A DNA stretch of 64,000 nucleotides, taken from the NCBI GenBank assembly GCA_031409275.1, contig JANNXA010000049.1:1-64000 (forward strand), read 5' to 3'. A program made the translations under genes and the position numbers. The DNA is from Planctomycetota bacterium (GTDB lineage: Bacteria > Planctomycetota > B15-G4 > SIAN01). The notes beneath the pieces were generated by a model. The model was given only the letters and a program-made list of their open reading frames with translations, had not been told where the DNA came from and searched no databases. Shown here piece by piece: positions 21,638 through 38,506 of this stretch; position 1 is the stretch's first letter; the number at the start of each line of letters is the position of its first letter.

Positions 21638-21841
21638 ATGGATGCGAAGGACAGCAAGGGACAAGGCGACGTCGAGGCGGGCAAGAGCGTGCCCGGCGGG
21701 CGCTTCGATGCGGCCCTGCCGATGGGCAAGCCGGGGGAGTCGGCGCAGGTGCGTCGCGATGCCGAGGGTGAACTCGACCTCGACGTCGGCGAGATCCAGA
21801 CCCGACTGCCGTACGGTTCGGAAGACATCGCGGACAAATGA
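21638..21841 (+). CDS. 67-aa candidate RiPP precursor peptide 2
   Basis: GGAG SD; ...GELDLDVGEIQTRLPYGSEDIADK; ATGA overlap with next gene. Confidence 0.6.
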   Translation: MDAKDSKGQGDVEAGKSVPGGRFDAALPMGKPGESAQVRRDAEGELDLDVGEIQTRLPYGSEDIADK

Positions 21842-23394
21842 GCGAAGCGAGCTGCGCGGTCGCGGCGGCGCCGGCTCCGGCGAGCGCGCGCTCGAATCGC
21901 TACTCGGCGCTGCTCGGCGGCATCGTGCTGCTCGGGCTGCTGCTGCGGTTGCCGGGCCTCTCCTCGTCCTTCTGGATCGACGAGGTCGACACGCTGCTCC
22001 ATTGCGTGCGCGAGCCGCTGGCGACGATCGTCACGTCGTACGCCAGCGAGAATCAGCACCCGCTCTATTCGCTCCTTGCGCATCTCTCGTTGCGCCTCTT
22101 CGGCGAGAGCGAGTGGGCGTTGCGACTGCCGGCGCTGCTGCTTGGAGTGGCGAGTCTCGCGGCGGTCGCGCGATTGGGTCGGCAACTGCTCGATGAGACG
22201 ACCGGGCTGCTCGCCGCGCTGCTGCTGGCGGTGTCGGCGCATCACGTCTGGTTCTCGCAGAACGCGCGCGGCTACACCGGGATGCTGCTCTTCTCGGTGC
22301 TGGCCACCAGCGAGTTCCTCGAACTCTGTTGGCGTCCGCGGCGCGCGAACGTGGTCCGCTACGCCTTGTTCGCGGCGCTGGCCACCTACACCCATCTCAC
22401 CGCCGCTTTCGCGTTCAGCGGTCATGGCCTCGCCTGGCTCGTGCTGCGCATGCGGCCGGCGTCCGCGGACGCGCGTCCGCTGATCGACTGCGGCCCGTTG
22501 CCGCTGCCGCGCGCCACCGGCGCCGCGCTCGCGGCGATGCTCCTCGCGGCGCTGCTGGCGGCGCTGCTCTACGCGCCGCTGGCCGGCGACCTCGTCGCGG
22601 CGTTCCGCGCGCGCGCCGAGGGGGCGAATGTGCAGGTCGTCAAGGTCGCGGCGTGGACGAGCCCGGGCTGGCTCCTCGAGCAGGTGACGTCGAGCCTCGG
22701 CCGTTCGTGGCTCGCGCTGGCCAGCCTGGTTGCGGTCGCGTTGCTGGCGCTGACCGGACTGCGGTCGCTGTGGCGCAACGGCCGGCGCCTGTTCGTCGCG
22801 ATCCACCTGCTGGCGCCGCCGCTGGCACTGCTCGTCCTGTTGCTGCTCCATCGCCACCTCTACCCGCGCTTCTTCTTCTTCGAGGCGGGATTCGCGGCGC
22901 TGCTGGTCGTGCGCGGCGCGCGCATCAGCGGCGGCTGGCTCTCCTGCAGCCTGCCCGGCTGCAAAGGTCAGCGCATCGAACTCTGGGGCATCGCGGTGGT
23001 CCTGCTGGTGGCGGCCGGATTCGCGCTCTCGCTCGATCGCGTCTACGCCCATCCCAAGCAGGACTTCACCGGCGCTCGCGACCTCGTCGCCGCGCGTGCG
23101 GCGCCGGGCGATGCCAAAGTCGCGGTGGGGCCGGCCAAGCTCGCGCTGCCCGGGTACTACGCGCCGGACTTCCAGATCGCCGACACCGCTGCCGAGCTCG
23201 AGTCGATCCGCGCCGGCGCTGCGGTCACGTGGCTGGTCTACACGCTCCCGGAGCAGCTTGCCGCGGCTCGCCCCGACGTGTTTGCCGTGGTGCAGCGCGA
23301 CTTCGAAGCGGTCGCCGAGCTGCCGGGATCGATGGGTGGCGGCTCCGTTTTCGTCCTGCGCTCGCGCGCGCCGACCGAGCCGCGTCGCGAGTGA
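21838..23394 (+). CDS. GT-C fold glycosyltransferase (PMT/ArnT-like)
   Basis: SFWIDE, HPLYSLL, EWALRLPA, SQNARGY motifs; many TM helices. Confidence 0.85.
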   Translation: MSEASCAVAAAPAPASARSNRYSALLGGIVLLGLLLRLPGLSSSFWIDEVDTLLHCVREPLATIVTSYASENQHPLYSLLAHLSLRLFGESEWALRLPALLLGVASLAAVARLGRQLLDETTGLLAALLLAVSAHHVWFSQNARGYTGMLLFSVLATSEFLELCWRPRRANVVRYALFAALATYTHLTAAFAFSGHGLAWLVLRMRPASADARPLIDCGPLPLPRATGAALAAMLLAALLAALLYAPLAGDLVAAFRARAEGANVQVVKVAAWTSPGWLLEQVTSSLGRSWLALASLVAVALLALTGLRSLWRNGRRLFVAIHLLAPPLALLVLLLLHRHLYPRFFFFEAGFAALLVVRGARISGGWLSCSLPGCKGQRIELWGIAVVLLVAAGFALSLDRVYAHPKQDFTGARDLVAARAAPGDAKVAVGPAKLALPGYYAPDFQIADTAAELESIRAGAAVTWLVYTLPEQLAAARPDVFAVVQRDFEAVAELPGSMGGGSVFVLRSRAPTEPRRE

Positions 23395-24299: not shown

Positions 24300-25193
24300 G
24301 TGATCGAGGACGTCGGCGAGCCGGCACGAGGCGCGAAGGAACGCGCCGTCACCGTCGTGATCCCCGCGTACAACGAGGGGCCGCACGTTGCCGCGCAGGT
24401 GCGCGCCGTCGCCGAGACCCTGCGCACCACCGGCTGGGAGTGGGAGCTGATCGTCGTCGACGACGGCTCGTCCGATCGCACTGCGGAGGAGGCCTCGGCC
24501 GCCGGCGCGCGCGTGCTGCGCAAGTTGCGCAACGAGGGCTACGGTGCCGCGCTCAAGACCGGCATCGCGGCCGCCAAGTACGGCTGGATCCTGATCACCG
24601 ACGCGGACGGCACCTATCCCACCGCCGCCATCCCGCAGATGCTCGAGCGCGCCGCTCGCAACGAGATGGTGGTCGGCGCGCGCATCGGCAAGAACGTGCA
24701 CATCCCGCTGGTGCGGCGCCCGGCGAAGTGGGTCCTCACCAAGCTCGCGAGCTACCTCGCCGGCCTGCGCATCCCCGACCTGAACTCCGGCCTGCGGCTG
24801 ATGCGCAAACCCCTGGTGCAGCGCTACGAACACCTCCTGCCGCAGGGCTTCTCCTTCACCACTACGATCACCCTCTGTTCCGCGTGCAACGGCCACCCGA
24901 TGGAGTTCATCGCCATCGACTACGCCAAGCGGCTCGGCGACAGCAAGATCCGGCCGCGCCACGCCTACGACTTCCTGCTGCTGATCCTGCGCACGATCGT
25001 GCTGTTCCACCCGCTCAAGTTCTTCCTCCCGACTGGCGCGTTGCTCTTCGCAGCGGGAACCGCGAAGTTCGTCTACGACTGCTATCGCGACAACCTCTCC
25101 GAGAGCGCCGTCCTCGCGCTGCTAGGTGCGCTGATCGTCTGGTGCGTCGGGCTGCTCGCCGACCAGAACGCTCGGATGGCGATGAAGCGCTGA
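24300..25193 (+). CDS. GT2 glycosyltransferase (polyprenol-phosphate glycosyltransferase-like)
   Basis: VVIPAYNE, VVDDGSSDRT, GYGAALKTG, DADG, two C-terminal TMs. Confidence 0.9.
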   Translation: MIEDVGEPARGAKERAVTVVIPAYNEGPHVAAQVRAVAETLRTTGWEWELIVVDDGSSDRTAEEASAAGARVLRKLRNEGYGAALKTGIAAAKYGWILITDADGTYPTAAIPQMLERAARNEMVVGARIGKNVHIPLVRRPAKWVLTKLASYLAGLRIPDLNSGLRLMRKPLVQRYEHLLPQGFSFTTTITLCSACNGHPMEFIAIDYAKRLGDSKIRPRHAYDFLLLILRTIVLFHPLKFFLPTGALLFAAGTAKFVYDCYRDNLSESAVLALLGALIVWCVGLLADQNARMAMKR

Positions 25194-25198
25194 CGACG

Positions 25199-26215
25199 AT
25201 GGCGCACGAACCGTTGCCACCCGCCCCGAATCGCCGACGCAAGCTGGCGCTGCGACTCGTCGCGAGCGCGCTGCTCATCGCGGCGCTCGTCGCCTTCGTG
25301 CCGTGGGCCAAGCTGCAGGCCGCGTTCGCTCGCGTCTCGCCCGCGACCTTCGCGCTGACTGCCGTGCTCTTCCTCGCGTGCCATGCGTTCGGCTCGCTCA
25401 AGTGGCGCATGGTGATCGGCGTCGCTGGCGCCCGCTTGCCGGTCATCGCGGCGTTCCAGTGCTACGCGGCGGGACTCTTCTCGAACATCTTCCTGCCGAG
25501 CATCGTCGGCGGCGACGTGCTGCGCGCGCTGCTCGCCGGCAAGAAGAGCGGGCGCATGGAGGCGGCGATCCTCGGTGGCGCCGCCGACCGCCTCCTCGAC
25601 CTCGCATCGCTCGGCCTCCTCGCTCTCGGCGCGAGCACTTGCGTCGGTTTCGCGCAGGAAGGGGCACGGCGCGCGCTGTTGCTGTTCGGTGCCGGGCTCG
25701 CCGCGGTGGCTGGGGTCATCGTCCTGTTCTTCCTGCTACGGCGCCCGCTCGCGAAGTGGCCGCGCAAGCTGCGCCGCCGCGTCGCGCAGGTGTTGCTGGC
25801 GCTGCGCCGGCAACGTCGCCGCCCGGGCGTGCTGCTCCTTTCCCTCCTCGGCGCGTGCGCGATGCAGGCGTCGCTGGTCGGGTTGAACGCCTTGCTGGCG
25901 GGGGGGCTCGAGCTGCATGCGGGGCCGGCCGCGTGGATCTTCTGCTGGTCGCTCGCGAAGCTCGCCGGCCTGATGCCGGTCGGATTCAACGGCATCGGCG
26001 TGCGCGACGGTGCGTTCGCCTTCCTGATGGCGCCGTTGCTGGCGGGCAGTGGATTGCCGCGCGAGGAGCTGCTCGCCCGCGCGCTCGCGGCGTCGCTCTT
26101 GTGGCAGGCGCTCCTGATCGTCGGCAGCCTCGTCGCAGGCGCGATCTGGGCGCTGCTGCGACGCGGCAGCGCGACCGAATCGCCGTTGGTCTCGGAGTCG
26201 GTGCAACATGGTTGA
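25199..26215 (+). CDS. lysylphosphatidylglycerol-synthase-TM/flippase-like membrane protein
   Basis: KW...FSNIFLPSIVGGD..R, DRLLDL, P...NGIGVRD motifs. Confidence 0.85.
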   Translation: MAHEPLPPAPNRRRKLALRLVASALLIAALVAFVPWAKLQAAFARVSPATFALTAVLFLACHAFGSLKWRMVIGVAGARLPVIAAFQCYAAGLFSNIFLPSIVGGDVLRALLAGKKSGRMEAAILGGAADRLLDLASLGLLALGASTCVGFAQEGARRALLLFGAGLAAVAGVIVLFFLLRRPLAKWPRKLRRRVAQVLLALRRQRRRPGVLLLSLLGACAMQASLVGLNALLAGGLELHAGPAAWIFCWSLAKLAGLMPVGFNGIGVRDGAFAFLMAPLLAGSGLPREELLARALAASLLWQALLIVGSLVAGAIWALLRRGSATESPLVSESVQHG

Positions 26216-27662
26216 GTCGACCGACGCGAATCCACGATCCAGGTTGCCTCGGGTGGCGATCCTCGGCGGCGGCCCCGCCGGCCTTGGAGCCGCGTGGCAG
26301 CTCGCGCTGCAGAAGAAGGCGCGCGTCCTGTTGATCGAGCAGAACGCCTGGTTCGGCGGCAACGCCGGCAGTTTCGAGTGGGACGGCCAGGCGCTCGACT
26401 TCGGCAGCCATCGCCTCCACCCCGCATGCGAGCCCTCGATCCTCGCCGACTTGAAGCGCCTGCTCGGCGCCGAGCTGCTCGATCGACCGCGCCACGGCCG
26501 CATCCGCATGCTCGGCCGCTTCATCCACTTCCCGCTGAAGCCGCTCGACCTGGTGCTGCGACTCGATCCGCGCTTCGGGCTCGGGATGGCGTGGGATGGC
26601 GTCACCAAGCGGTCGCGCCGCTCGCCGCCGGGAAGCGCTGACACCTTCGCGTCGGTGCTGCGCGAGAGCCTCGGTCCGACCATGTGCGAGCGCTTCTACT
26701 TCCCCTATGCGCGCAAGCTCTGGGGCCGCGAGCCCGCCGAGCTCTCCGGCATCCAGGCGCGCAAGCGCGTCTCGGCCGGCACGGTGATGAAGCTGCTGCG
26801 CAAGGTGTTGAACGCCGTGCCGGGCCTGAAGAAGCCCGGCTCGGGTCGCTTCTGGTATCCGCGGCATGGGTATGGCCAGCTCTCCGACGCGCTCGCGCGG
26901 GCGGCGCAGCTCGCGGGCGCGGAGCTCCTCGTCGAGCATCGCGTGAAGCTGCTCGAACCGCCGAACGCGCAGCTCCCGTGGCGCGTCTGGATCGATCGCG
27001 GCGGGCGCGAGCAGGTCGTCGAAGCGGACTTCGTCTGGTCGACGCTGCCGATCTCGCTGATCCCGAAGCTGCTGAAGAGCGAGCCGACCGATGCGCTCGC
27101 GGCCGCCGCCGCGCAGACGCGCTATCGCGCCATGCTGCTGGTCTACCTGCGCTTGCCGGTGGCTCGCTTCACCGAGTACGACGCCCACTACTTCCCGGAA
27201 GCGGCCATCACGATCACGCGCCTCTCGGAGCCGAAGAACTACTCCGACCTCGGGGCCCCGGTCGGCGCGACCACCTTGTGCGCCGAGCTGCCGTGCGACG
27301 CCGGCGACCGCTTCTGGAAGATGAGTGAGGCGGAGCTCGGCGAGCTGGTCGCCGCCGACCTCGCGCGCGCCGGCATCCCGCTGCCCGTTGCGCCGAGCGC
27401 CGTGAAGGTGATGCGCTTGCCGCAGGCCTATCCGATCTATCCCAACGGGTACGAGCAGCCGCTGGCGCAGCTCGATGCGTTCGCCGACGCGCTGCCGAAT
27501 TTCATGACCTACGGTCGCCAAGGGCTCTTCGCCCACGACAACACCCACCACGCACTGGCGATGGCCTATGCCGCCGTCGAGTGCCTGCAAGGCCGCGAGT
27601 TCGACCGTGCCGCGTGGGCGCGCCATCGCGAGGTCTTCGCGACACACGTCGTGGAGGACTGA
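26208..27662 (+). CDS. FAD-dependent oxidoreductase (UDP-galactopyranose mutase/HemY-like, glycan-cluster type)
   Basis: GGGPAGL dinucleotide motif, GG..GSF, DFGSHRLH, AYPIY, GRQGLF. Confidence 0.8.
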   Translation: MVESTDANPRSRLPRVAILGGGPAGLGAAWQLALQKKARVLLIEQNAWFGGNAGSFEWDGQALDFGSHRLHPACEPSILADLKRLLGAELLDRPRHGRIRMLGRFIHFPLKPLDLVLRLDPRFGLGMAWDGVTKRSRRSPPGSADTFASVLRESLGPTMCERFYFPYARKLWGREPAELSGIQARKRVSAGTVMKLLRKVLNAVPGLKKPGSGRFWYPRHGYGQLSDALARAAQLAGAELLVEHRVKLLEPPNAQLPWRVWIDRGGREQVVEADFVWSTLPISLIPKLLKSEPTDALAAAAAQTRYRAMLLVYLRLPVARFTEYDAHYFPEAAITITRLSEPKNYSDLGAPVGATTLCAELPCDAGDRFWKMSEAELGELVAADLARAGIPLPVAPSAVKVMRLPQAYPIYPNGYEQPLAQLDAFADALPNFMTYGRQGLFAHDNTHHALAMAYAAVECLQGREFDRAAWARHREVFATHVVED

Positions 27663-27670
27663 CCGCCGCC

Positions 27671-28864
27671 GTGCGCATCGCCGTCGACGCCTCCTCCTGC
27701 TTCAACCGGCGCGGCTTCGGGCGCTTCGCTCGCGAGTTGCTGGTCGCGTTGAGTCGGCGCCAGGACGGCTTCGACTGGCTGCTGCTGGTCGATCGCGAGC
27801 CGGCACCCGGCGATCTGCCCGACGCGCTGGCGAGGTTGCCGCGCTTGAACGCGCAGCCGGGGCGCACGGTGACCGACGCCGCGGTCGCTGGCGATGCGCG
27901 ACGGCCCGCCGAGATGCTCGCCTTCACGCGGGCGGCGCGCCGCAGCGGTGCCGACCTGCTGTTCCTGCCGGCGGTCTACAGCGCCTTCCCGTTGTGGCCA
28001 GGCACGCGTGCGGTGGTCTGCTTCCATGACGCGATTGCCGAGCGATTCCCGCGGATGGTCTTTCCCGACCGCAAGAGCGAGTGGTTCTGGCGCGCGAAGT
28101 CATGGCTGGCGGCGCGCCAATCAACTCGCGTGATGACGGTCAGCGAAGCTTCGGCGCGTGACGTCGGCGCCGCCTACCGCGTGGCGCGCGAACGCATCGA
28201 CGTGGTGACGGAAGGGGCCGATCCCCGCTTTGAGCCAGTCGTCGATCGCGCCGCCCTCGCCGCCGCGCTTGCGCGGCTGAAGGTGCCGACGTCGCGGCCC
28301 TATTTCCTCTTCGTCGGCGGCATCAGCCCGCACAAGAACCTCGCCACCTTGCTGACCGCGTTCGCGCGATTGCTCGAGCACGACGATGCGACGCTGGTGC
28401 TGGTGGGCGATCCGCAAGCCGACGGTTTCCTCGCGGTCGCCGCGCCGCTGCGACAGCAGATCGCCGCCGATCCGCGCCTCGCCGCGCGCGTCTGCTGGAC
28501 CGGGTTCGTCCGCGACGAAGAGCTCGTGCCGCTCTACCAGGGGGCACACGCGCTGGTGTTGCCGTCGCTGCTCGAGGGCTTCGGCCTGCCGGCGCTCGAG
28601 GCGATGAGCTGCGCGACGCCGATCCTCGCGAGTCGCGCCGGCTCGCTGCCCGAGGTGGTGGGCGAGGGCGGGCTCTATTTCGAGCCGCTCGATGGCGCGG
28701 CGCTCACGACCGCGTTGCGCACGCTGCTTCGTGATCCGGCGCAGCGCGACACGCTGGCGGTGCGAGCGCTCGACCGTTCGAAGCGCTTCTCATGGGAGCG
28801 CGGCGCCGAGCTGGCGGCCGCCTGTTTCCAGCGTGCGCTCGCCACCGCGACGGCGGGGGGCTGA
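27671..28864 (+). CDS. GT4 glycosyltransferase
   Basis: FVGGISPHKN, PSLLEGFGLPALEAMSC, SLPEVVG. Confidence 0.92.
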   Translation: MRIAVDASSCFNRRGFGRFARELLVALSRRQDGFDWLLLVDREPAPGDLPDALARLPRLNAQPGRTVTDAAVAGDARRPAEMLAFTRAARRSGADLLFLPAVYSAFPLWPGTRAVVCFHDAIAERFPRMVFPDRKSEWFWRAKSWLAARQSTRVMTVSEASARDVGAAYRVARERIDVVTEGADPRFEPVVDRAALAAALARLKVPTSRPYFLFVGGISPHKNLATLLTAFARLLEHDDATLVLVGDPQADGFLAVAAPLRQQIAADPRLAARVCWTGFVRDEELVPLYQGAHALVLPSLLEGFGLPALEAMSCATPILASRAGSLPEVVGEGGLYFEPLDGAALTTALRTLLRDPAQRDTLAVRALDRSKRFSWERGAELAAACFQRALATATAGG

Positions 28865-28865
28865 G

Positions 28866-29609
28866 ATGGACGCGCTGCTCTCCTTCCATGGGATCGACGA
28901 CTCGGGTTCGGTGCTCTCCTACGCGCCGGCGGAGTTCGAGCGCCTGCTCGATGGACTGCTCGAGGAGGGCGTGAGCGTCGTCGCGCTCGACGAACTGCTC
29001 GCGACCAACGGGAGCGCCGCGCCGCGCGTCGCGCTCACCTTCGACGACGGTTTCCGTTCCGTGCACGCGCAGGCGCTGCCGCGGTTGGCCGCGCGCAAGC
29101 TCCCGTTCACGGTCTACGCGGTCGCGGGCTACCTCGGCCGCGACAACCGCTGGCCGTCGCAACCCGCTTCGATCGCGCGCTTCGAGCTGATGGACGCCGT
29201 GCAACTGCGGGAGCTTGCCGCCGCGGGCGCCACCATCGGTGGCCACACCTCCACGCATCCCGATTGCCGTGGCCTCGACGCGGCGTCGCTGCAACGGGAA
29301 GTGGTCGACTCGCGCTCGCAACTCGAAGCGCAACTCGGCGCGCCGGTGCGCCACTTCGCCTGGCCCTACGGCCGCTTCGACGCCGCGGCGGATGCGGCGA
29401 TGCGGCCCCATTGGCAAAGCGCCGTCACCACGCGCCTCGCCTATCTGCCGGGGCCGACGGTACGCGACGTCCACGCGCTGCCGCGGCTCGACACCTGGTA
29501 CCTGCGCGAGCCGCAGCGCCACCGTCCGCTCTTCGGGCCGCGCACGCGCGCCTGGATCGCCTGGCGGGCGCTGTTGCGCTCGCTCAAGGGCGCGGCGTAC
29601 GGATCGTGA
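28866..29609 (+). CDS. polysaccharide deacetylase (CE4)
   Basis: LTFDDG, GHTSTH, FAWPYG. Confidence 0.9.
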   Translation: MDALLSFHGIDDSGSVLSYAPAEFERLLDGLLEEGVSVVALDELLATNGSAAPRVALTFDDGFRSVHAQALPRLAARKLPFTVYAVAGYLGRDNRWPSQPASIARFELMDAVQLRELAAAGATIGGHTSTHPDCRGLDAASLQREVVDSRSQLEAQLGAPVRHFAWPYGRFDAAADAAMRPHWQSAVTTRLAYLPGPTVRDVHALPRLDTWYLREPQRHRPLFGPRTRAWIAWRALLRSLKGAAYGS

Positions 29610-29611
29610 CC

Positions 29612-30643
29612 ATGACCACGATCAGCGTCGTCATGCCGATGTGGAACGCCGCGAGCTACCTCGACCTGGTGCTGCCGCCGCTGCAGCGCGCCCTGGCCGA
29701 TTCGCGCGTCCTCGAAGTGCTGGTGGTCGATGACGGGTGCACCGACGATGGGCCGCAGCGCGCTCGCGCCGCCGGTTTCACGGTGATTCCGTCGGGCGGC
29801 CGCCTCGGTCCCGGCGCCTGCCGCAACCTCGCCGCGTGCCGCGCGCGCGGCGACCTCCTGCTCTTCATCGACGCCGACGTCGTGATGCATGACGACGTGC
29901 CGGAACTGGTGGTCGCCCATTTCGAGCGTCGTGCCGAAGTTGTCGCGCTCTTTGGCGCCTACGACGATCGTCCGCATGCGCGCGGCATCGTCTCGCGCTA
30001 CCGCAACCTGCTGCATCACTTCACCCACTTCGCCCACGAAGGCGAAGCGTCGACCTTCTGGGCGGGCTGCGGTGCGGTGCGCCGCACCGCGTTCCTCGCC
30101 GCCGGTGGCTTCGACTCCGACTACTACAAGGTCCCCTCGATCGAGGACATCGAGCTCGGCTACCGATTGCGCCGTGCCGGCGGCGTCATCCTGCTGACGC
30201 CGGAAATCCAGGGCACGCACCTCAAGCGCTGGACGTTTCGGGGAATGCTCCAGACCGATGTCTTCCGGCGAGCGCTGCCGTGGGGGCGTCTGCTGCAGCA
30301 TCCCGAGCTTGCCGGGGCCGTGCTGAACGTCAGCAACGCCGAACGGCTGAAGGCGCTGATCGGCGGCGCCTTCTTTGCGGCCGCCATCGCCGGCCTGATC
30401 CACACGCCGTTCCTGGGCGCCGCCATGGCGCTGTTGCTGGTGGCGGCGCTGACGAGCTGGCCCTTCTATTGGGTGGTCGCCCAATCGGCGGGGCTGCTGA
30501 CGGCGTTGGCCGCCCTGTTCCTCCACCAGCTCTATTTCGTCTACGGCGCCGCGACGTTCGTGTGGTGCGTGGTCGAGCACAAGATCCGCCTGTCGCCGCC
30601 GCCCCCGCTCGGGACGCGCCCGCCCTTGCAGTCGGGAGGATAA
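29612..30643 (+). CDS. GT2 glycosyltransferase with C-terminal TMs
   Basis: SVVMPMWN, VVDDGCTD, FIDADV, IEDIELGYRL. Confidence 0.9.
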   Translation: MTTISVVMPMWNAASYLDLVLPPLQRALADSRVLEVLVVDDGCTDDGPQRARAAGFTVIPSGGRLGPGACRNLAACRARGDLLLFIDADVVMHDDVPELVVAHFERRAEVVALFGAYDDRPHARGIVSRYRNLLHHFTHFAHEGEASTFWAGCGAVRRTAFLAAGGFDSDYYKVPSIEDIELGYRLRRAGGVILLTPEIQGTHLKRWTFRGMLQTDVFRRALPWGRLLQHPELAGAVLNVSNAERLKALIGGAFFAAAIAGLIHTPFLGAAMALLLVAALTSWPFYWVVAQSAGLLTALAALFLHQLYFVYGAATFVWCVVEHKIRLSPPPPLGTRPPLQSGG

Positions 30644-30701: not shown

Positions 30702-31847
30702 TTGGACCTCGACTTCAGCGACGAGCAGCGCACCTGGCACGACGCCGCGGTCGACTTCGCGCGCCGTCACCTCGCCGGCGATGCGGTCGCCGCGGATCGC
30801 GAGGAGCGCTTCGACCATGAGGGGTGGCGCCGCGCCGCGGAGTTCGGCGTGCTGGCGATGCCGGTCGCCAAGGAGCTCGGCGGCCTCGGCCTCAAGATCG
30901 GCGAGGTGATCGCCGTGATGGAGGGGCTCGGCTACGCGGCGAAGGACCAGGGGCTGCTCTTCTCGCTGAACGCGCATCTCTGGACCAACACGCTCCCGCT
31001 GGTCGAGTGGGGCACGCCTGAGCAGCGTCAGCGCTGGCTGCCGGGACTGCTGGATGGTTCGTGCATCGGCGCGAACGGCGCGAGCGAGCCCGACTCCGGC
31101 TCCGACGTCTTCGCGATGCGCACGCGCGCGACGCGCCGCGGCGACCACTACGTGCTGAACGGCACCAAGATGTTCGTCACCAACGCGCCGGTCGCCGACC
31201 TGCTCGTCACCTACGCGACGATCGACCCCGCGCTCGGTTCGATGGGAGTGACCGCCTTCCTCGTCGATGGCCATGCCCGAGGCGTCACCGTCAGCCGCAA
31301 GCTCGCCAAGATGGGGCTGCGCACCTCGCCGATGGCGGAGGTCGTGTTCGAAGAGGTCGTGGTGCCGGTCGCCGATCGGCTCGGCCGCGAAGGGCGCGGC
31401 GTCGCCGTGTTCGAATCGTCGATGGAGTGGGAGCGCGGCTGCATCCTCGCCAGTTGCCTCGGCGTCATGCGCCGCCAGCTCGAGCGCTGCCTCGCCCACG
31501 CGCGCGAGCGCCAGCAGTTCGGCCAGTCGATCGGCAAGTTCCAGTCGGTGGCGAACAAGCTCGTCGACATGCGGCTGCGGCTCGATACCTGCCGACCGCT
31601 CGTCTACCGGATCGGGCGGATGAAGGAGGCGGGACGCGATGCGACCGTCGAGGCGGCGCTCGCCAAGCTGCACGTCTCCGAGTGCCTCGTGAAGAACAGC
31701 CTCGACGCGGTGCAGCTGTTCGGCGGCTACGGCTACATGACCGAGTACGAGCTCGAACGCGATCTGCGCGACGCGGTCGGCAGCACGCTCTACTCCGGAA
31801 CCAGCGAGATCCAGCGCAACCTGATCGCGCGCGGGCTCGGCTTGTGA
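30702..31847 (+). CDS. acyl-CoA dehydrogenase family, prolyl-carrier-protein dehydrogenase type (AnaB/PltE/RedW-like)
   Basis: ASEPDSGSD, SMEWERGCI, QFGQSIGKFQ, YSGTSEIQ (Ser in place of the MCAD YEG Glu); TTG start after AAGGA. Confidence 0.85.
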   Translation: MDLDFSDEQRTWHDAAVDFARRHLAGDAVAADREERFDHEGWRRAAEFGVLAMPVAKELGGLGLKIGEVIAVMEGLGYAAKDQGLLFSLNAHLWTNTLPLVEWGTPEQRQRWLPGLLDGSCIGANGASEPDSGSDVFAMRTRATRRGDHYVLNGTKMFVTNAPVADLLVTYATIDPALGSMGVTAFLVDGHARGVTVSRKLAKMGLRTSPMAEVVFEEVVVPVADRLGREGRGVAVFESSMEWERGCILASCLGVMRRQLERCLAHARERQQFGQSIGKFQSVANKLVDMRLRLDTCRPLVYRIGRMKEAGRDATVEAALAKLHVSECLVKNSLDAVQLFGGYGYMTEYELERDLRDAVGSTLYSGTSEIQRNLIARGLGL

Positions 31848-33172
31848 CGAGCGGAGCCGTGGTCGGCGCAGTCGATGCGAGCGTGACGGTCGCCGACGCG
31901 GCCCGCGCGCAGCGTTGTCGGCTGGAGCCGCGGCGTTACGTCGTGCTGCTGCTCGAGTTGGCGCTGCTACTGGCGGCGTTTCGCAGCTTCAAGCTACACG
32001 AGCTGATCGGCGAGACCTTCTTCGCCGTCAGCGCGATCGCCGCGGTCGCCTTCGCGCTGCACTACTGGCTGCCGTTGCGACTGAAGGAACCCGCCTTCAT
32101 CGCCATCTCGATCGGCGCGCTGCCTTTCCTGGTCGGGCCGACGGTGGCGCTGCTGCTGCTCGCCGTGGCGCTGGCGATCTTCGCGATCGGACGCGCCGAA
32201 GGCTCGAACGCGATGCGGGCGGGCGGGCTGCTCCTGATCGGCGCGGCGTGTGTCGCCGGCCGGGTCGGCGCGCTGCCGTGGCTGCCGGAGGAGTTGTGGC
32301 CGCTGCTCGGCTCGGTGTTCCTGTTCCGGTTGCCGATCTGGGCGTACGACCGCGCCCACCTGCGCGGGCGCCCGTCGCTGCGCGAGTACCTCACCTACTT
32401 CTTCATGCTCCCCAATTGGGGATGCCTGCTGTTCCCGGTCGTCGATTTCCAGACGCAGCGCAAGAGCTTCCTCGCGCGCGATCAGAACGAAGTGGCGCAG
32501 ACCGGCATCGCCTGGATGGCGCGCGGGCTGTTGCAGCTGGTGATCTACACCTGGCTCTACAACGCGCGGGAGTGGTTCCCGGATCCGCTCCTGATCGACG
32601 ATCCGCTGGCGCTGCTGCTGTGCCTGGCGCGCGTCTATCTGCTCTACCTGCGCCTTTCGGGGACGTTCCACTTCGTGATCGGGCTGATGCACCTGTTCGG
32701 CTACGACCTGCCCGAAACCCACCGTCGCTGGCTGCTCTCCTCGTCGCTCACCGACTTCTGGCGGAGGATCAACCTCTACTGGAAGGACTTCATGGTGAAG
32801 CTGGTGTGGTTCCCGGCCTACTTCCGCTGGCGCAAACAGGGGGAGCGGCGCGCGCAGCTCGCCGCGACGGCGCTGGTCTTCGTGGCGACCTGGTTCCTGC
32901 ACGCCGCGCAGACCTTCTTGGCGACCGGGACCTTCCTGTGGCGCGCCACCGATGCCGTCTTCTGGGCGATCCTCGGCGTGCTGGTGCTGGTGAACCTCGC
33001 CTTTGAGCTGCGGCCCGGGGCGGCCGCAAGAGCGGCGGCGCGCCCCGCGTGGTCGCGGGCGTTGCGAGTGGCGGCGACGCTGCTGCTCCTGATGGTGCTC
33101 TGGTCGATGTGGAACGCGCCGACCTTCGCCGAGTGGTTCGACCTGCTGACCTGGTGGAAGGTGGGTGGGTGA
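31844..33172 (+). CDS. MBOAT-family O-acyltransferase (DltB/AlgI-like)
   Basis: Multi-TM; LFGYDLPET, SLTDFWRRIN, conserved His in TWFLH; GTGA overlap with dehydrogenase. Confidence 0.85.
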   Translation: MTSGAVVGAVDASVTVADAARAQRCRLEPRRYVVLLLELALLLAAFRSFKLHELIGETFFAVSAIAAVAFALHYWLPLRLKEPAFIAISIGALPFLVGPTVALLLLAVALAIFAIGRAEGSNAMRAGGLLLIGAACVAGRVGALPWLPEELWPLLGSVFLFRLPIWAYDRAHLRGRPSLREYLTYFFMLPNWGCLLFPVVDFQTQRKSFLARDQNEVAQTGIAWMARGLLQLVIYTWLYNAREWFPDPLLIDDPLALLLCLARVYLLYLRLSGTFHFVIGLMHLFGYDLPETHRRWLLSSSLTDFWRRINLYWKDFMVKLVWFPAYFRWRKQGERRAQLAATALVFVATWFLHAAQTFLATGTFLWRATDAVFWAILGVLVLVNLAFELRPGAAARAAARPAWSRALRVAATLLLLMVLWSMWNAPTFAEWFDLLTWWKVGG

Positions 33173-33239
33173 ACCGTCGTCGCGACGCGTCGGCATCGCT
33201 CATTGCCGAGCGCCTTCGCAGGGAGCAGAATCGGCCGCC

Positions 33240-33491
33240 ATGGACGAGATCGCCAACGAACTTCGCCGCTTCCTTCTCGCCGAGTTCCTGCCCGGGGAGA
33301 GCGCGGCCAACCTGCGCGACGACACGCCGCTGCGGACGGGCGGCATCCTCGATTCGGTTTCGACCCTCAAGTTCGTGGCCTTCGTCGAGCAGCGCTTCGG
33401 CATCGAGATCGAAGCGCACGAGACTGGCGTCCGCGACTTCGACTGCATTGCCGACGTCGCCGCATTGGTACAGCGCAAGCGGGGGCGCTGA
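33240..33491 (+). CDS. acyl/peptidyl carrier protein
   Basis: 83 aa acidic, GGILDSV phosphopantetheine Ser, FVEQRFGIEI; GGGAG SD. Confidence 0.9.
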   Translation: MDEIANELRRFLLAEFLPGESAANLRDDTPLRTGGILDSVSTLKFVAFVEQRFGIEIEAHETGVRDFDCIADVAALVQRKRGR

Positions 33492-33495
33492 GGCG

Positions 33496-35121
33496 ATGGT
33501 GGCGAGCGGAGCCACCGCGCAGAGTCTCTGCGACCTGCTCGAAGCGTCGACGCGCCGCCACGGCGATCGGACCGCGCTGGTGTCGCCCGACGGCAGCGCG
33601 ACGAGCTACGCGCAACTCGAGCAGCACGCGAGCGCGATCGCGGCGTTCCTGCGCGAGAGCGGCGTGGAGCCGGGCGATCGCATCGGCTTGTGCCTGCCGA
33701 AAGGGGCGGCGAGCGTCGCGGTGCTCTGGGGCGCGATGAAGGCGCGTGCCGCCTACGTGCCCGTCGACTGGCAGGGACCGGCGGCCCGCAACGCGGCGAT
33801 CCAAAGGGACGCGGGGGTCCGTGTGCTCTTCCTCGGCGAAGCGCGCGCCGACGTGCTTCGCGAGTGGCCGCAAGCGACGGCGCTGCCGACGCTCGTGCGC
33901 GTGCCGATGGGACGGACGGGCGCCGCGGGTGCGTTCGCCGCGGTCGTCGCGCCGTTTCCGGCTGCCGCGATCGAGTGGAGCGCGGTGTTGCGCCACCCGC
34001 CGCTCGCGCCCGATGGAGCCGGCCCGCGCGGTCGCGAGCAGCTGGCCTACATCCTCTACACGTCCGGTTCGACCGGGGTGCCCAAGGGCGTCGCGCTCAC
34101 GCACGGCAACGCGCTCGCGTTCGTCGACTGGGCCAGCGAAGTGTTCGCGCCGACGCCGGACGACCGCTTCTCGAGCCACGCGCCGTTTCATTTCGACCTC
34201 TCCGTCTTCGACCTCTTCGTGGCGCTGAAGCACGGCGCGACGTTGGTGCTGATCGGCGAGGAGCTCGGCAAGGAACCGAAGGGGTTGGCGCGCTGCATCG
34301 CCGAGCAGAAGCTGACCTTCTGGTACTCGACCCCTTCGGCGTTGGCGCTGCTCGCGGAGTTCGGGCAGCTCGCGGCGCATGACCTTTCCGCGTTGCGCCA
34401 CGTCCTCTTCGCCGGCGAGGTCTTTCCGCTGCCGGCGCTGCGCCGCTTGACCGAGCAGTTGCCGCGGCCGGCGTTCTGGAACCTCTACGGGCCCACCGAG
34501 ACCAACGTCTGCACCTTCGCGCGCATCCCGCTGCCGATCGCGCCCGACCGTACGCGTCCGTTTCCGATCGGCCCACTTTGCGCGCATTGCGACGGGCTCG
34601 TCCTCGACGAGGCGCGGCGCGAAGTGGCGGTGGGTGGCGAGGGCCGGCTCCACATCGCCGGGCCGGCGCTCTTCGCGGGCTATTTCGGCCGTCCCGACCT
34701 CGATACGACGGTCTTCTTCGAGCGAGGAGGGCGGCGCTGGTACGACACCGGCGACGTCGTCCGCGAGGTCGCGGGCGAGGGGTTCCATTACCTCGGCCGG
34801 CGCGACCGCATGGTCAAGCGCCGCGGCTACCGCATCGAGCTCGGCGAGGTCGAGGCGGCGTTGCAGCGCCATCCCGAGCTGCGCGAGGCGGCGGTGGTGG
34901 CGCTGCCCGACGCGGCGTGCGGCGTGCGAATCGACGCCCATGTCGTGGCGGTCGCTGCGCCGCTGTCGTTGATCGCGCTGAAGCGTTTCTGTGCCGAGCA
35001 GCTGCCGGCGGCGATGAGCCCCGACCGTTTCGTCTTCCACCCGCAGCTCCCGCGCACTTCGACGGCGAAGGTCGACTACCCGGCACTCCTGCGCGTGTCT
35101 TCCGGCGGAGGCGCACCATGA
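33496..35121 (+). CDS. stand-alone adenylation domain, predicted L-proline:carrier protein ligase
   Basis: YTSGSTGVPKG, FDLSVF, NLYGPTETNVC, YDTGD, GYRIELGE, A10 Lys; manually read specificity code DLFYLALVCK. Confidence 0.88.
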   Translation: MVASGATAQSLCDLLEASTRRHGDRTALVSPDGSATSYAQLEQHASAIAAFLRESGVEPGDRIGLCLPKGAASVAVLWGAMKARAAYVPVDWQGPAARNAAIQRDAGVRVLFLGEARADVLREWPQATALPTLVRVPMGRTGAAGAFAAVVAPFPAAAIEWSAVLRHPPLAPDGAGPRGREQLAYILYTSGSTGVPKGVALTHGNALAFVDWASEVFAPTPDDRFSSHAPFHFDLSVFDLFVALKHGATLVLIGEELGKEPKGLARCIAEQKLTFWYSTPSALALLAEFGQLAAHDLSALRHVLFAGEVFPLPALRRLTEQLPRPAFWNLYGPTETNVCTFARIPLPIAPDRTRPFPIGPLCAHCDGLVLDEARREVAVGGEGRLHIAGPALFAGYFGRPDLDTTVFFERGGRRWYDTGDVVREVAGEGFHYLGRRDRMVKRRGYRIELGEVEAALQRHPELREAAVVALPDAACGVRIDAHVVAVAAPLSLIALKRFCAEQLPAAMSPDRFVFHPQLPRTSTAKVDYPALLRVSSGGGAP

Positions 35122-36260
35122 CGCCGTTCGCCCGCTCGGCCGCGGCGACGGTGGCGCTGCTGGTCGCGCTGCTCGCTCTCGAGCGCGCGCATCCCTCGGT
35201 CGCTCCGAGCTGGGTGCCGCGTTGGCTGCGGGCGCAGGTGCGCGAGTGCGTCTACCACGGCCTGAACGAAGAGGACGAGCTCGGCTTGCTGGCCGGCTAC
35301 TACACCGAACTGCTCGACGCGAGCCGCGAATCGACGCGAAGCGGCGACCTCGACGACGTCTGGGAGAGGGCGCTCCATCGTGGCGCGATCCACGAGCGGC
35401 TGGACTCCTTCCTGCTCTATCGACCCAAGCCGTCGACCGGCGATCCGGGCGACCCGTCGGCCGCGCATCTCACCAATCGCGCCGGACTGTTCGATCGCGA
35501 CTACCCCGACGCGCGCACCCCGGGAGTGCGGCGCCTGGTGTGGGTCGGCGATTCGCTCTCGCGAGGGCTCGGCGCGCCGTTCGGGAAGGGGCTCGAGCCA
35601 CGACTCGAAGCGTGGCTGAACGAGCCGCGCGGTGACGGGACGGGTGTCGAGGTGCTGAACCTCGCCGTCGAGGGCTATCGCCTCACGCAGTTCATCAAGG
35701 TCGTGGACGAGGCGCTGCCGCGCTGGCATCCCGACGTCGTGGTCGTCGGCCTCTCCGACCTCTCGGTGGCGCGGATCTGGGGACACCACCTCGCCTGCCT
35801 CGTCCATGACGGCATCGACCTCGAGTACCCCTACCTGCGCGAGCTTGTCGTCCGCGCGCGGCTAGAGCGCAACGACCCGCCGCGCGTTTCCGACGCGAAG
35901 CTGGCGCCCTTCCGCGTCGAGTTCATCCGTTTCGCGTTGACCACGATCCGCGCGAGCTGCGCGTCGGCGGGCGCGCAAGTGGTGATCGCGCTGCTCCCCG
36001 CCGTCGGCGAGAGCGATCGACTCGAAGCGCGATTCCTCGAGGCGCGCGCGATCGCGCTCGAGCTCGAGCTGCCGGTGATCGACCTCGTCGAGACCTTTGC
36101 GGGGGTCAGCGACCTCGCCGATTGGCGCGTCAGCGACATCGATCACCATCCGAACGAAGCGGGCTACGGGCGCCTGCTCGCGGCATTCCAGTCAGCGCTC
36201 CGGGCCGCGCCGGCCACCTACGAACTCTTCGCCGGCCGTCCGCTGCCGGCGGGGGACTGA
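35118..36260 (+). CDS. membrane-anchored SGNH hydrolase/acyltransferase (DltD/AlgJ-like)
   Basis: N-terminal TM, block I VGDS, block V DHHPN; ATGA overlap. Confidence 0.82.
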   Translation: MTPFARSAAATVALLVALLALERAHPSVAPSWVPRWLRAQVRECVYHGLNEEDELGLLAGYYTELLDASRESTRSGDLDDVWERALHRGAIHERLDSFLLYRPKPSTGDPGDPSAAHLTNRAGLFDRDYPDARTPGVRRLVWVGDSLSRGLGAPFGKGLEPRLEAWLNEPRGDGTGVEVLNLAVEGYRLTQFIKVVDEALPRWHPDVVVVGLSDLSVARIWGHHLACLVHDGIDLEYPYLRELVVRARLERNDPPRVSDAKLAPFRVEFIRFALTTIRASCASAGAQVVIALLPAVGESDRLEARFLEARAIALELELPVIDLVETFAGVSDLADWRVSDIDHHPNEAGYGRLLAAFQSALRAAPATYELFAGRPLPAGD

Positions 36261-36266
36261 GCGCGC

Positions 36267-37535
36267 GTGGTCGCACGCCTGCCGTCGTGGCGCGGACTGA
36301 CGGTGCTGCTTGGCGGCGAGGGCACGCAGCGCGGCCTGTCGTTCGTCGCGATCTGGTTGCTGACGCAGCGCATGACGCGCGAGCAGTACGCGCCGGTCGA
36401 GGTCGCGCTCGCCGCCTTGATGTTCGCCGCGCTCGTGGTCGAACTCGGCCTCCCGCTGCTGGGCGCGCGCGAGGTCGCGCGACAGCCGACGCACGCGCTG
36501 TCGCTCGTGCGTCCGGTCGTCGGGTTGCAACTGGTGACGGCGTTGGTGCTCGCGGGGCTCGCGTTCGTCGCGCGCGCAGCAGGCTGGATCGATGGAGTGC
36601 TTGCGCAGCTGCTGCCGGTCTACGCGCTCAGCCTGCTCTTGCTGCCGTGGCTCGTGCCGTGGCTCTTCCAGGGCCTTGGCGCGATGGCGTGGGTCGCGGC
36701 GCCCGGGGTCCTGCGCCAGGGGCTCTTCCTCGCGGGCGTCGCCGTCTGGGTGACCGATGGCGAGCGAATCGCCCGACTGCCGTGGATCGAAGTGGCCGCG
36801 GTTGGCGGCGCGGCAGCGCTTGCGCAGTTGGCATGGCGGAAGCGGACGGCGGCGCTGCGAGCGGTCGGCGCGATCGGCGCGATCGGCGAACCGCGGGCGC
36901 TGCCGTCGCGGTCGGCGCTGTTGCGTGAAGCGGCCCCCATGGGACTCTCGCAGTTCCTGTGGGCGCTGCGGATGTTCCTGGCGACGCTGCTGTTGTGGAA
37001 CCTTGTGGAACGGCCGGCGGTCGCCGATTACGGGGTCGCCCATCGGGTGATGATGATCCTGCAGGCCGTGATCACGATGTACTTCACGAATCTCTATCCG
37101 ACGCTCTCGCGCGCAGCGGTCGGGCCGCGTCCGGAGCTGGCGCGGTTGCTGGTTCGATCGCTGTCGATCGCGACCGGCGGCGCGCTGCTGCTCGCGGGCG
37201 GGATCGCGGTGGCGGCGCCGTGGCTGCTGCACACCCTCTTCCGGGCGGAGTTCGCCAACGCGCAGAGCATCCGTTGCCTGCGCCTGCTGATCTTCGTCAT
37301 TCCATTGCTGGCGCTGCGCGGCCACTTCCGAATGACGCTGCTGTCGATGGGCCGCGGGCGGCTCGAGCTGATGGTGTCGATCGGCGGGACGTTGCTGCTG
37401 GCGGCGCTGATCCCGTCGCTTGCGCGTGCGCAGGGGGCGAGCGGCGCGGCGCTCTCGCTGCTGATCGCGGAAGCGGCGGGGACGGCGGCGACGGCGATCG
37501 CGTTCTCGATGGCATGGCGGGAGCGGCGGGCATGA
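36267..37535 (+). CDS. Wzx-like oligosaccharide flippase
   Basis: Multi-TM MOP-superfamily pattern (ELGL...GAREVA, WLFQG, YGVAHR, YPTLSR). Confidence 0.85.
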   Translation: MVARLPSWRGLTVLLGGEGTQRGLSFVAIWLLTQRMTREQYAPVEVALAALMFAALVVELGLPLLGAREVARQPTHALSLVRPVVGLQLVTALVLAGLAFVARAAGWIDGVLAQLLPVYALSLLLLPWLVPWLFQGLGAMAWVAAPGVLRQGLFLAGVAVWVTDGERIARLPWIEVAAVGGAAALAQLAWRKRTAALRAVGAIGAIGEPRALPSRSALLREAAPMGLSQFLWALRMFLATLLLWNLVERPAVADYGVAHRVMMILQAVITMYFTNLYPTLSRAAVGPRPELARLLVRSLSIATGGALLLAGGIAVAAPWLLHTLFRAEFANAQSIRCLRLLIFVIPLLALRGHFRMTLLSMGRGRLELMVSIGGTLLLAALIPSLARAQGASGAALSLLIAEAAGTAATAIAFSMAWRERRA

Positions 37536-38506
37536 GCGACGGGCTGGTCTTCGTGCTCGGTGCGCCGCGCAGCGGAACGACGCTGTTGCGCGCGATGCTG
37601 AATCGCCACTCGCGCGTCGGGCTGTGCGACGAGACCTTCTTCTTCTACTGGGTCGCGCAGCGCGAGCGGGTCTTCGGTGACCTCGCCGACCCGCGCCGTC
37701 GCGCGCGGGCGATCGACCGCTTCGTCGCGACGCGTCGCATCGAGCGGCTGCGTCTCGATCGCGCGGCGCTGCAGGCGTGCCTGCAGGAGGAGGCGACGAG
37801 CTATCCGGCCTTCTTCGCGTCGCTGCTCCGTTTCTATGCGCGCGCGCAGGGCAAGACGATCGGCGGCGAGAAGACGCCGCAGCACGCCTTGCACGCGGCC
37901 ACGTTGCGGCGCTGGTATCCCGACGCGCGGCTGATCCACCTGATCCGTGATCCGCGCGACGTCGCCGCGTCGCTGAAACGGATGCCGTGGGGCAGCGGCA
38001 GCGCGCTCTCCGATGCCACGTTGTGGCGCGACTGCGTCGAAGGCGCCGAGGCGCTGGCAGGAGATCCGCGGTTCGCACGCGTTCGCTACGAGACCCTCGT
38101 GGAGCAGCCGCAGCCGGAGCTCGAGCGGCTCTGCGCCTTCCTCGGGCTTGCGTTCGAGCCGGGCATGCTGCAAGGCGAGGCGAAGAAGAGCGACCGCTGG
38201 TGGTTCGACCGCGCGCAGGGAGCGCTCGAGAAGTCGCGCGTCGAGCGTTGGCGCAGCGAACTCGACGCCGATGAGGTCGCGATCGTGGAGCGCGTCGCGG
38301 GGCACCACCTTGCGGCGCACGGCTACGTCGCGGCGCAGCCGCCGGCGACGCCGCCGCAGTGGCGCGCGGCGCAGTGGCAGGCGAAGGTCGCCGGACTCAA
38401 GCGTCGCTGGCGCCACCTCCCGGCCACTTTCTGGCGGCTCGTTCGGCCCGATCTCCTGGCGCGCGAGGAACGTGCGATCGACGGCCCTGGCGACCCGATC
38501 GAGTGA
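37532..38506 (+). CDS. PAPS-dependent sulfotransferase
   Basis: 5'-PSB GAPRSGTT, EKTP, 3'-PB RDPRDVAAS, RYETLV. Confidence 0.92.
   Translation: MSDGLVFVLGAPRSGTTLLRAMLNRHSRVGLCDETFFFYWVAQRERVFGDLADPRRRARAIDRFVATRRIERLRLDRAALQACLQEEATSYPAFFASLLRFYARAQGKTIGGEKTPQHALHAATLRRWYPDARLIHLIRDPRDVAASLKRMPWGSGSALSDATLWRDCVEGAEALAGDPRFARVRYETLVEQPQPELERLCAFLGLAFEPGMLQGEAKKSDRWWFDRAQGALEKSRVERWRSELDADEVAIVERVAGHHLAAHGYVAAQPPATPPQWRAAQWQAKVAGLKRRWRHLPATFWRLVRPDLLAREERAIDGPGDPIE

Follow-up and report, generated by a model that had tools for sequence, protein, structure and literature searches.

A prolyl-carrier trio encoded with a divergent MBOAT-SGNH pair in a Planctomycetota bacterium: a predicted Dlt-like relay of pyrrole-2-carboxyl groups to envelope glycans

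The locus described here raises the question of which acyl group is handled, and onto which acceptor it is moved, when the genes of a proline-activating trio stand together with those of a membrane acyltransferase pair. The window, that is the whole stretch of 64,000 nt analyzed (contig JANNXA010000049.1), contains at 30702-36260 five adjacent open reading frames (ORFs), here called the cassette, which lie on the + strand and encode in this order a flavin-dependent dehydrogenase, an MBOAT, a carrier protein, a stand-alone adenylation (A) enzyme, and an SGNH protein (Table 1). Two junctions overlap by 4 bases (GTGA 31844-31847 between dehydrogenase and MBOAT, ATGA 35118-35121 between A enzyme and SGNH), and the remaining gaps measure 67 bases (MBOAT/carrier) and 4 bases (carrier/A). 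An earlier note on this DNA had described this order, the tight spacing, and both overlaps, and the ORFs were re-found at the same positions; the dehydrogenase motifs that it listed were located as SMEWER from residue 240 and YSGTSEIQ from residue 364, the ten residues of its A-domain code (DLFYLALVCK) were read again at the GrsA-equivalent positions, and its flanking glycosyltransferases (GTs), Wzx, and sulfotransferase have Pfam matches, as do a GT-C, a flippase-like protein, and a deacetylase. The answer that we consider moderately likely, built on the observed gene identities, folds, conserved catalytic residues, co-occurrence, and gene fusions, is a Dlt-type relay in which pyrrole-2-carboxyl would pass from the carrier via the MBOAT, a tyrosine, and the SGNH protein onto an envelope glycan.

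The A enzyme has as its best single-domain match in the PDB the L-proline--carrier ligase PltF (6O6E, 311 bits), which is outscored by multi-module non-ribosomal peptide synthetase (NRPS) chains solely through the summing of domains. In the pocket region the enzyme scores 174 bits to PltF and at most 104 bits to DltA, and the DltA models give it 240-248 bits versus cut-offs of 476-560, so that it is not a DltA; on the question of proline versus alanine, proposed earlier as a check, the code is thus of the PltF type and not an alanine code. The first nine code positions of PltF (DLLYLALVC) match the window enzyme at 8/9, the complete codes being DLLYLALVCK and DLFYLALVCK, and Lys517 is retained. 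In the related loci 56 A domains score >300 bits, 25 of them with the code DLLYLALVCK, 10 with DLFYLALVCK, and 21 with variants.

The top PDB matches of the carrier are the carrier chain of 6CXT (Bmp1) and then 2MY5, PltL, and PigG, with DltC far lower; the phosphopantetheine serine is kept in 65/65 aligned rows. The NCBIfam label 'ornithine lipid biosynthesis acyl carrier protein' (107 bits, cut-off 130) was not adopted for this protein because the genome has no olsHGI match. The dehydrogenase is matched in the PDB by AnaB (390 bits), PigA (307 and 305), and Bmp3 (276), and ordinary acyl-CoA dehydrogenases score at most 259 bits; the residues W-E-R are kept in 50/50 aligned rows, and Glu244, which we take to be the catalytic base, is aligned and conserved. 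With PltF, Bmp1, and AnaB as the best solved relatives, the assignment of the three soluble proteins to the pyrrolyl- or pyrrolinyl-carrier type is supported, and they form a genuine prolyl-carrier trio, whose downstream partner is unusual. According to the accessible part of PMC10849742, RedW, PltE, and Bmp3 take four electrons from carrier-bound proline, and the catalytic glutamate is common to AnaB and Bmp3.

The membrane protein has no sequence match in Pfam, NCBIfam, or the PDB, and the Pfam MBOAT family is matched by only 1/55 of its aligned relatives; because the sequence libraries missed it, it was identified as an MBOAT by fold alone. Its AlphaFold model (pLDDT 93) gives DltB as the best Foldseek match (8JEM, 6BUG; TM 0.64-0.66), followed by other MBOATs, with an identity to DltB of about 12%; in a profile comparison the segments WRRINLYW and HAAQ align with canonical MBOAT at a probability of 93%. 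His340 is invariant in sets of 55 and 44 aligned sequences and in 123/123 fusions, and the naming of the second gene as an MBOAT is borne out by this residue and by the model. The protein belongs to a separate subfamily, since 10/41 related genomes match at E <1e-100 and all other matches are 3e-10 or weaker, and its distribution in the phylum is patchy (7/301 sampled genomes). A representative library contains 708 MBOAT clusters at E <=1e-30, and the MBOAT-SGNH family comprises more than 700 clusters at 50% identity in Planctomycetota, Acidobacteriota, Gemmatimonadota, Pseudomonadota, Myxococcota, and others. Fusions with SGNH are common: 23 occur in the loci read, and among 149 newly examined representatives the 123 with at least 800 aa all carry an SGNH domain (123/123). 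One member (P0300, 1281 aa) contains, besides MBOAT and SGNH, one additional domain and a further segment that resembles a degenerate SGNH.

As stated in the available text of PMC12148441, acyl transfer proceeds via the tyrosine of an FXYXXF motif at the C-terminus of either DltX or the MBOAT, and MBOAT-SGNH pathways other than Dlt have no carrier protein. FXYXXF was found on 0/82 locus MBOATs, 0/120 homologues, and 0/149 representatives, and no DltX-like ORF ending in it was found at 13001-40000 of the window; six ORFs with this ending occur in the 79 loci described below, one of them on the cassette strand beside cassette genes (L043, near a carbamoyltransferase). The SGNH protein has an N-terminal hydrophobic helix, Ser146 in a GDS motif, and Asp342 and His344 in DHHP; in 44 sequences the invariant columns are Y61, Y62, R139, G144, S146, and H344, and in 123 fusions the Ser and the His are present in 123/123 and the Asp in 119/123. 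The two tyrosines of a GYY motif, located about 38 residues past the anchor helix, are invariant in the 44 aligned SGNH partners and kept in 49/51 homologues (the two misses being weak outliers), and in the diverse fusions the first is found in 123/123 and the second in 122/123; of 20 further SGNH proteins encoded in the genome, 18 could be scored, and none of these has the motif. Within the 23 fusions of the loci the tyrosine lies about 185 residues after the MBOAT His, beyond one or two hydrophobic helices, just as FXYXXF of PatA lies behind further hydrophobic helices. In the model of the lone SGNH protein GYY falls in a low-confidence segment (48-74), as expected for an arm that would depend on a partner. 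Because FXYXXF is absent and the first GYY tyrosine is as invariant as the MBOAT His and the SGNH Ser and His, Tyr61 is predicted to be a relocated acyl shuttle replacing the FXYXXF tyrosine.

Small membrane proteins ending in APFIYxLF, and thus in FXYXXF, were also observed (L012:9060-9227, L034:12367-12549, L043:19248-19427); two of the three adjoin NodU-type carbamoyltransferase genes, and they look like DltX-style shuttles of a different pathway.

A scan of a genome collection gave at least 595 relatives of the cassette, of which the best 79 loci, anchored on the MBOAT, were examined for gene content: SGNH is present in 76, the carrier in 64, the Pro-type A enzyme in 57, the dehydrogenase in 50, and all five genes in 49, several absences stemming from short contigs. 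Because all five recur in 49/79 loci from several phyla, the arrangement is not due to chance; the gene order varies widely, with MBOAT and SGNH interleaved with the trio. The nearest relatives belong to Planctomycetota, a fused four-gene form occurs in Aromatoleum anaerobium (L078), and a split form in Singulisphaera acidiphila (L067 plus donor genes elsewhere). The dehydrogenase is missing from 29 loci; in 5/5 genomes searched it (46-66% identical) and a matching carrier are encoded elsewhere, and in two of these five split genomes the distant donor genes sit in glycosyltransferase/Wzx clusters. A ketosynthase (KS) motif was found in 0/79 loci and an NRPS condensation motif in 1/79 (L055). 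In the reverse direction, 80 metagenome loci were anchored on the A enzyme: among the closest 20 (47-70% identical, many shorter than 7 kb) a cassette-type MBOAT or SGNH occurs in 11 and a KS motif in none, and among the other 60 a KS motif is present in 10 and a weak MBOAT or SGNH match in 3. In a FastTree phylogeny without characterized reference enzymes, the KS-linked dehydrogenases group apart from that of the window. The neighborhood survey that had been proposed thus shows close homologues paired with MBOAT and SGNH rather than with a polyketide synthase (PKS), in line with the noted lack of a PKS or NRPS beside the cassette; the genome, which is 93% complete, has no condensation domain, either by family search or by tblastn with locus queries. 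On the whole, the earlier note's reading is supported, while the fusions, the donor swaps, the missing FXYXXF, and the invariant GYY had gone unnoticed in it.

Amino-acid kinases beside L078 and L079 were considered as a proline supply and give no support because they are ArgB, not ProB. In another locus (L122:9830-12138) a proB above the cut-off and a proA-like gene lie directly 3' of a prolyl trio, which is consistent with proline supply.

In the proposed relay the A enzyme very probably adenylates L-proline and loads it on the phosphopantetheine of carrier Ser39, as the code and homology indicate; an FAD-dependent oxidation of the carrier-bound proline through Glu244 is predicted with equally high confidence, and its product is likely pyrrole rather than pyrroline. 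The next step, which conservation and position make reasonably plausible, would be the transfer of the acyl group by MBOAT His340 from the carrier to SGNH Tyr61 of GYY, in substitution of the FXYXXF tyrosine. Finally, Ser146 would, with fair probability, accept the group and esterify a sugar hydroxyl, here probably of the glycan made by the neighboring GT, Wzx, and sulfotransferase genes or of a polyprenyl-delivered sugar. MBOAT and SGNH would carry the group over the inner membrane to the cell surface.

The glycan as acceptor was evaluated with the window's eight glycan enzymes as queries in loci of at least 15 kb, the four closest loci being excluded: a match occurs in 20/50 long loci versus 24/239 genome tiles, an approximately four-fold enrichment (Fisher p 1e-6, overstated by kinship). 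Family scans with Pfam and NCBIfam on 192 selected neighbors of about 1,130 called genes, with no control set, add envelope-glycan genes in 14 further of the 50 loci, namely GT-C, sugar-transferase, Wzm/Wzt, MurJ, DegT, and exosortase-A-associated genes. The contexts differ by locus, from Wzx/Wzy clusters through PEP-CTERM loci to polyprenyl-sugar/GT-C modules; the probable acceptor is therefore a sugar hydroxyl that is borne by different glycans, and where the cassette stands alone the glycan may be made elsewhere. The hosts mostly belong to diderm phyla.

The nature of the acyl group is illuminated by variants among 87 loci. PltA-like halogenases are present in 6/87, some with a methyltransferase; that of L029 scores 577 bits to ChlB4, 571 to PltA, and 561 to 5BUK, versus 159 for the next match, and the dehydrogenases of L029 and L061 share the clade of the window enzyme with 99% support. 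PltA-type halogenases act on the aromatic ring, and their occurrence in sister cassettes therefore favors pyrrole over pyrroline. In 7/87 loci the donor is swapped, an acyl-CoA-ligase-type enzyme standing in place of the Pro enzyme and the dehydrogenase, with an amidohydrolase-family gene in 6, a chorismate pyruvate-lyase in 5, and a DAHP synthase/chorismate mutase fusion in one; the carrier is retained even there. In a quick MBOAT tree the swapped loci are scattered among the Pro-type ones, and at least two label changes are needed. The MBOAT family thus appears to prefer aromatic acyl groups, which again favors pyrrole.

The swapped cassettes (L013-L015, L023, L033, L041, L051) come from Acidobacteriota and also have an O-methyltransferase; five of them keep the GT-C/GT2/flippase-like module of the window type.

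Several observations weigh against the proposed relay. The closest relative of the dehydrogenase is AnaB, not PigA (390 versus 307 bits), and the product of AnaB is pyrroline, at which the oxidation stops; the NCBIfam scores for PigA (437, cut-off 500) and RedW (403, cut-off 650) are below cut-off, and a search of the window's genome found no PltA-type halogenase. Some loci have C, F, N, or H at the fifth position of the code, and one A enzyme has the code DMQYGAFVCK. In the SGNH protein the Asn of block III is not conserved, and the fold matches are hydrolases (esterases). Around two A-enzyme relatives with 63-64% identity (L082/L083), stretches of 10.8 and 3.6 kb, respectively, contain no gene for an MBOAT, an SGNH protein, or a carrier, and about 16/50 long loci have no glycan gene among the genes scanned, which leaves room for an acceptor other than a locus-specific polysaccharide. 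Moreover, the cassette MBOAT family is missing the FXYXXF motif given for bacterial MBOAT-SGNH pathways in PMC12148441, as far as its accessible text extends.

Among the alternatives, the one that survives best, although unlikely, retains the relay with a non-glycan acceptor: the group would go to an amino-lipid or some other membrane lipid, to a surface protein, or to water, in which last case the SGNH protein would release extracellular pyrrole-2-carboxylate or a small ester. Besides the loci lacking a glycan gene and the esterase folds, it can draw on Singulisphaera and one related genome, in which the carrier adjoins the ornithine lipid genes olsHGI, and on a lipid A acyltransferase-like gene 3' of the A gene in 5 loci. 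On the other hand, the genome of the window has no olsH/G/I match, glycan genes are enriched four-fold, the invariant extra Tyr and the membrane anchor would suit a transferase better than a plain hydrolase, and OlsH, according to the available part of PMC12493201, works without a carrier protein.

A relay onto a glycan of pyrroline-carboxyl or of a proline analogue, or through an amide on a deacetylated amino sugar, is decidedly unlikely. This alternative can draw on the polysaccharide deacetylase two genes upstream of the cassette, the variant A codes, the AnaB match, and the dehydrogenase scores below the PigA and RedW cut-offs; nevertheless, PltA-like halogenases occur alongside dehydrogenases from the clade of the window enzyme, the replacement donor of other loci is linked to chorismate and hence probably aromatic too, and a pyrroline ester would be unstable extracellularly.

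Lastly, it is highly improbable that the neighbors are unrelated, with the trio feeding a secondary metabolite in trans (e.g., through the KS of contig C19) and MBOAT-SGNH acetylating a glycan from acetyl-CoA: distant trios do adjoin ketosynthases (10/60 loci), an orphan KS of 714 aa is present in the genome, and 8/79 loci have MBOAT and SGNH but no carrier, A enzyme, or dehydrogenase nearby, yet the MBOAT and SGNH genes stand intermingled with those of the trio across many gene orders and phyla, the KS-linked dehydrogenases are a separate group, donor genes were present in trans in all five genomes checked, the genome has two canonical MBOATs elsewhere, and the carrier is kept where the ligase is swapped.

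The Dlt-type relay onto an envelope glycan would be new in several respects. In the literature searched, with subscription papers and supplements outside the scope, the matches listed include no paper joining an MBOAT to a pyrrole or prolyl-carrier donor and none with a pyrrole acyl group on an envelope glycan; no specificity-code string was found in it either. As far as their accessible parts go, 10.1101/2025.01.14.632903 concerns another system, PMC10609480 lacks the terms pyrrole and proline, and 10.1101/723874 reports a planctomycete chorismate lyase and halogenase that make a free acid, acyl transfer being unmentioned. In its available portions PMC12148441 gives no carrier outside Dlt and a shared C-terminal FXYXXF, and the cassette family departs from both statements. 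A broader proposal can be advanced tentatively: an undescribed MBOAT-SGNH family might dress envelopes with natural-product blocks, by default pyrrole-2-carboxyl, halogenated or methylated pyrroles where PltA-like halogenases and methyltransferases join the cassette, and chorismate-derived benzoyl where the donor is swapped, with a third kind of Tyr shuttle located on the SGNH protein. If the reading as a Dlt-type relay is right, envelope decorations would gain a class that is aromatic and heterocyclic and in some cases halogenated; the shuttle would have a new position, and the pyrrole trio, which genome mining would file as a secondary-metabolite cluster, would have a use outside antibiotics. 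Glycan engineering might likewise profit from a modular enzyme pair that brings aryl groups through the membrane to sugars. The reading is testable in cultured strains that carry the cassette, Aromatoleum anaerobium and Singulisphaera acidiphila, the latter being genetically tractable according to the accessible text of PMC12493201.

Table 1. Positions of the cassette genes, of selected residues, and of context genes in the window.
Feature	Position	Strand	Evidence
Prolyl-carrier dehydrogenase (AnaB/PigA/RedW-like flavoenzyme), 381 aa	30702..31847	+	PDB and NCBIfam matches; Glu244 in SMEWERG
Divergent MBOAT, 442 aa, without C-terminal FXYXXF	31844..33172	+	Predicted fold, Foldseek; conserved His340
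Codon of MBOAT His340 (numbering from start at 31883)	32900-32902	+	Invariance in alignments
Peptidyl carrier protein of type II (83 aa) with Ser39 in GILDSV	33240..33491	+	PDB matches
Predicted L-proline ligase, a stand-alone adenylation enzyme of 541 aa with the code DLFYLALVCK	33496..35121	+	PDB match, pocket alignment
Membrane-anchored SGNH protein, 380 aa; Ser146, Asp342, His344	35118..36260	+	Pfam PF13472, SGNH fold
GYY motif (Gly60-Tyr61-Tyr62) of SGNH protein, predicted acyl-shuttle tyrosine	35295..35303	+	Conservation in fusions
Context: GT-C (PMT_2/ArnT-like) membrane glycosyltransferase	21838..23394	+	Pfam PF13231
Context: GT2 polyprenyl-phosphate sugar synthase-like, flippase-like LPG_synthase_TM, and FAD oxidoreductase genes	24300..27662	+	Pfam, NCBIfam
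Context: GT4, polysaccharide deacetylase, GT2 (start codons approximate)	27659..30643	+	Pfam
Context: Wzx-type flippase and sulfotransferase, tightly coupled to SGNH gene	36267..38506	+	Pfam PF01943, PF13469

Regarding the surroundings, the module of GT2, flippase-like, and FAD oxidoreductase genes is found again next to cassettes of Planctomycetota and Acidobacteriota (gene maps L001, L004, L012-L015, L023, L051), and the Wzx-sulfotransferase order 3' of the SGNH gene is also found in L001-L004 and L090. A scan for promoters and terminators gave no signal exceeding that of shuffled sequences. The genome has one copy each of the MBOAT and carrier genes, and the next A, dehydrogenase, and SGNH paralogues are at most 38% identical. 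A family search detected one AcpS-sized phosphopantetheinyl transferase, for which the tblastn with locus queries had been empty, and four ketosynthase matches: a FabF-sized one, two weak thiolase-like ones, and the orphan stand-alone KS (G000:C19:20333-22477; L178:8333-10477), whose N-terminal part is FabF-like, whose C-terminal half has no family assignment, and next to which no carrier gene was seen.

Other genes of the window touch on sulfation and methylation. Three alkaline-phosphatase-superfamily (Phosphodiest) genes are placed around ATP sulfurylase and APS kinase (window:44656-53500), and in L005, L077, L192, and L196 similar ones flank the cassette or its donor genes; a role in supplying or editing a sulfated glycan is possible. 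A B12-binding radical SAM gene lies 5' of the glycan genes (window:18970-21408), with relatives near the trio in L082, L167, L042, and L163, and its product is a possible methylase for pyrrole or sugar. A low-GC island (window:438-10145; 52-60% versus about 70%) with RepL-like, SIR2_2-domain, ParE-family, AAA_15 ATPase, and tyrosine recombinase genes and a 391-aa ORF without family assignment is probably a mobile defense island cut by the contig start.

In related genomes, the carrier/olsHGI/dehydrogenase region of split forms was located at L193:1710-1964, L193:4788-7891, L192:6624-7769, and L194:7006-15398. A carrier there that bears the ornithine-lipid name of NCBIfam (NF052616) and is 50% identical to that of the window is encoded convergently to olsHGI, with a gene for a prolyl-carrier dehydrogenase nearby, and the MBOAT-SGNH-SGNH-A genes of its genome lie far off (L067); this protein may be a pyrrole carrier rather than an ornithine-lipid acyl carrier protein. 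Furthermore, related prolyl trios stand beside hexapeptide-repeat acyltransferases and glycan genes in the metagenome loci L100, L102, L103, L104, and L110, and others beside Wzx, GT2, or sugar transferases in L116, L124, L136, and L138, which suggests a second, cytoplasmic route of proline-derived groups onto sugars; L102 also encodes a canonical MBOAT ending in FIYFQF.

In comparison with known systems, the closest solved homologues of the soluble proteins belong to the trios PltF/PltL/PltE, PigI/PigG/PigA, RedM/RedO/RedW, Bmp4/Bmp1/Bmp3, and AnaC/AnaD/AnaB. The antibiotic-type pyrrole trios share with the cassette a near-identical code, the conserved Glu, and PltA-like halogenases in sister loci, but the cassette loci lack a PKS, NRPS, or thioesterase partner, and the downstream enzyme is a membrane acyltransferase. 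In the aminocoumarin pathways (CloN1-7/CouN1-7) a proline-derived pyrrole-2-carboxyl group is esterified to a noviose hydroxyl; these employ soluble cytoplasmic acyltransferases on a small-molecule antibiotic, whereas the cassette would follow a trans-membrane MBOAT-SGNH route to the envelope.

The systems PatA/PatB, AlgI/AlgJ/AlgX, and WssH/WssI likewise have an MBOAT-SGNH pair in Gram-negative glycan loci, with an MBOAT fold bearing the catalytic His and an SGNH Ser-His-Asp triad as in the cassette. According to the available text of PMC12148441 they take the acyl group from acyl-CoA without a carrier and end in FXYXXF; in contrast, the cassette type has its own ligase, a carrier gene in 64/79 loci, and no FXYXXF, and is often fused to SGNH. 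With Dlt (DltXABCD in the accessible part of PMC12148441, where the acceptor is teichoic acids) the cassette shares a stand-alone A enzyme, a dedicated carrier, an MBOAT, and an anchored SGNH protein encoded together; its MBOAT, whose best fold match is DltB, also ends like DltB without extra motif-bearing helices. The differences are a Pro-type instead of a D-Ala code, the added on-carrier flavin oxidation, the lack of DltX and FXYXXF with a candidate shuttle Tyr on the SGNH chain, the low identity to DltB, and the diderm hosts. The cassette thus appears to work like Dlt but belongs neither to Dlt nor to the PatA/AlgI type.

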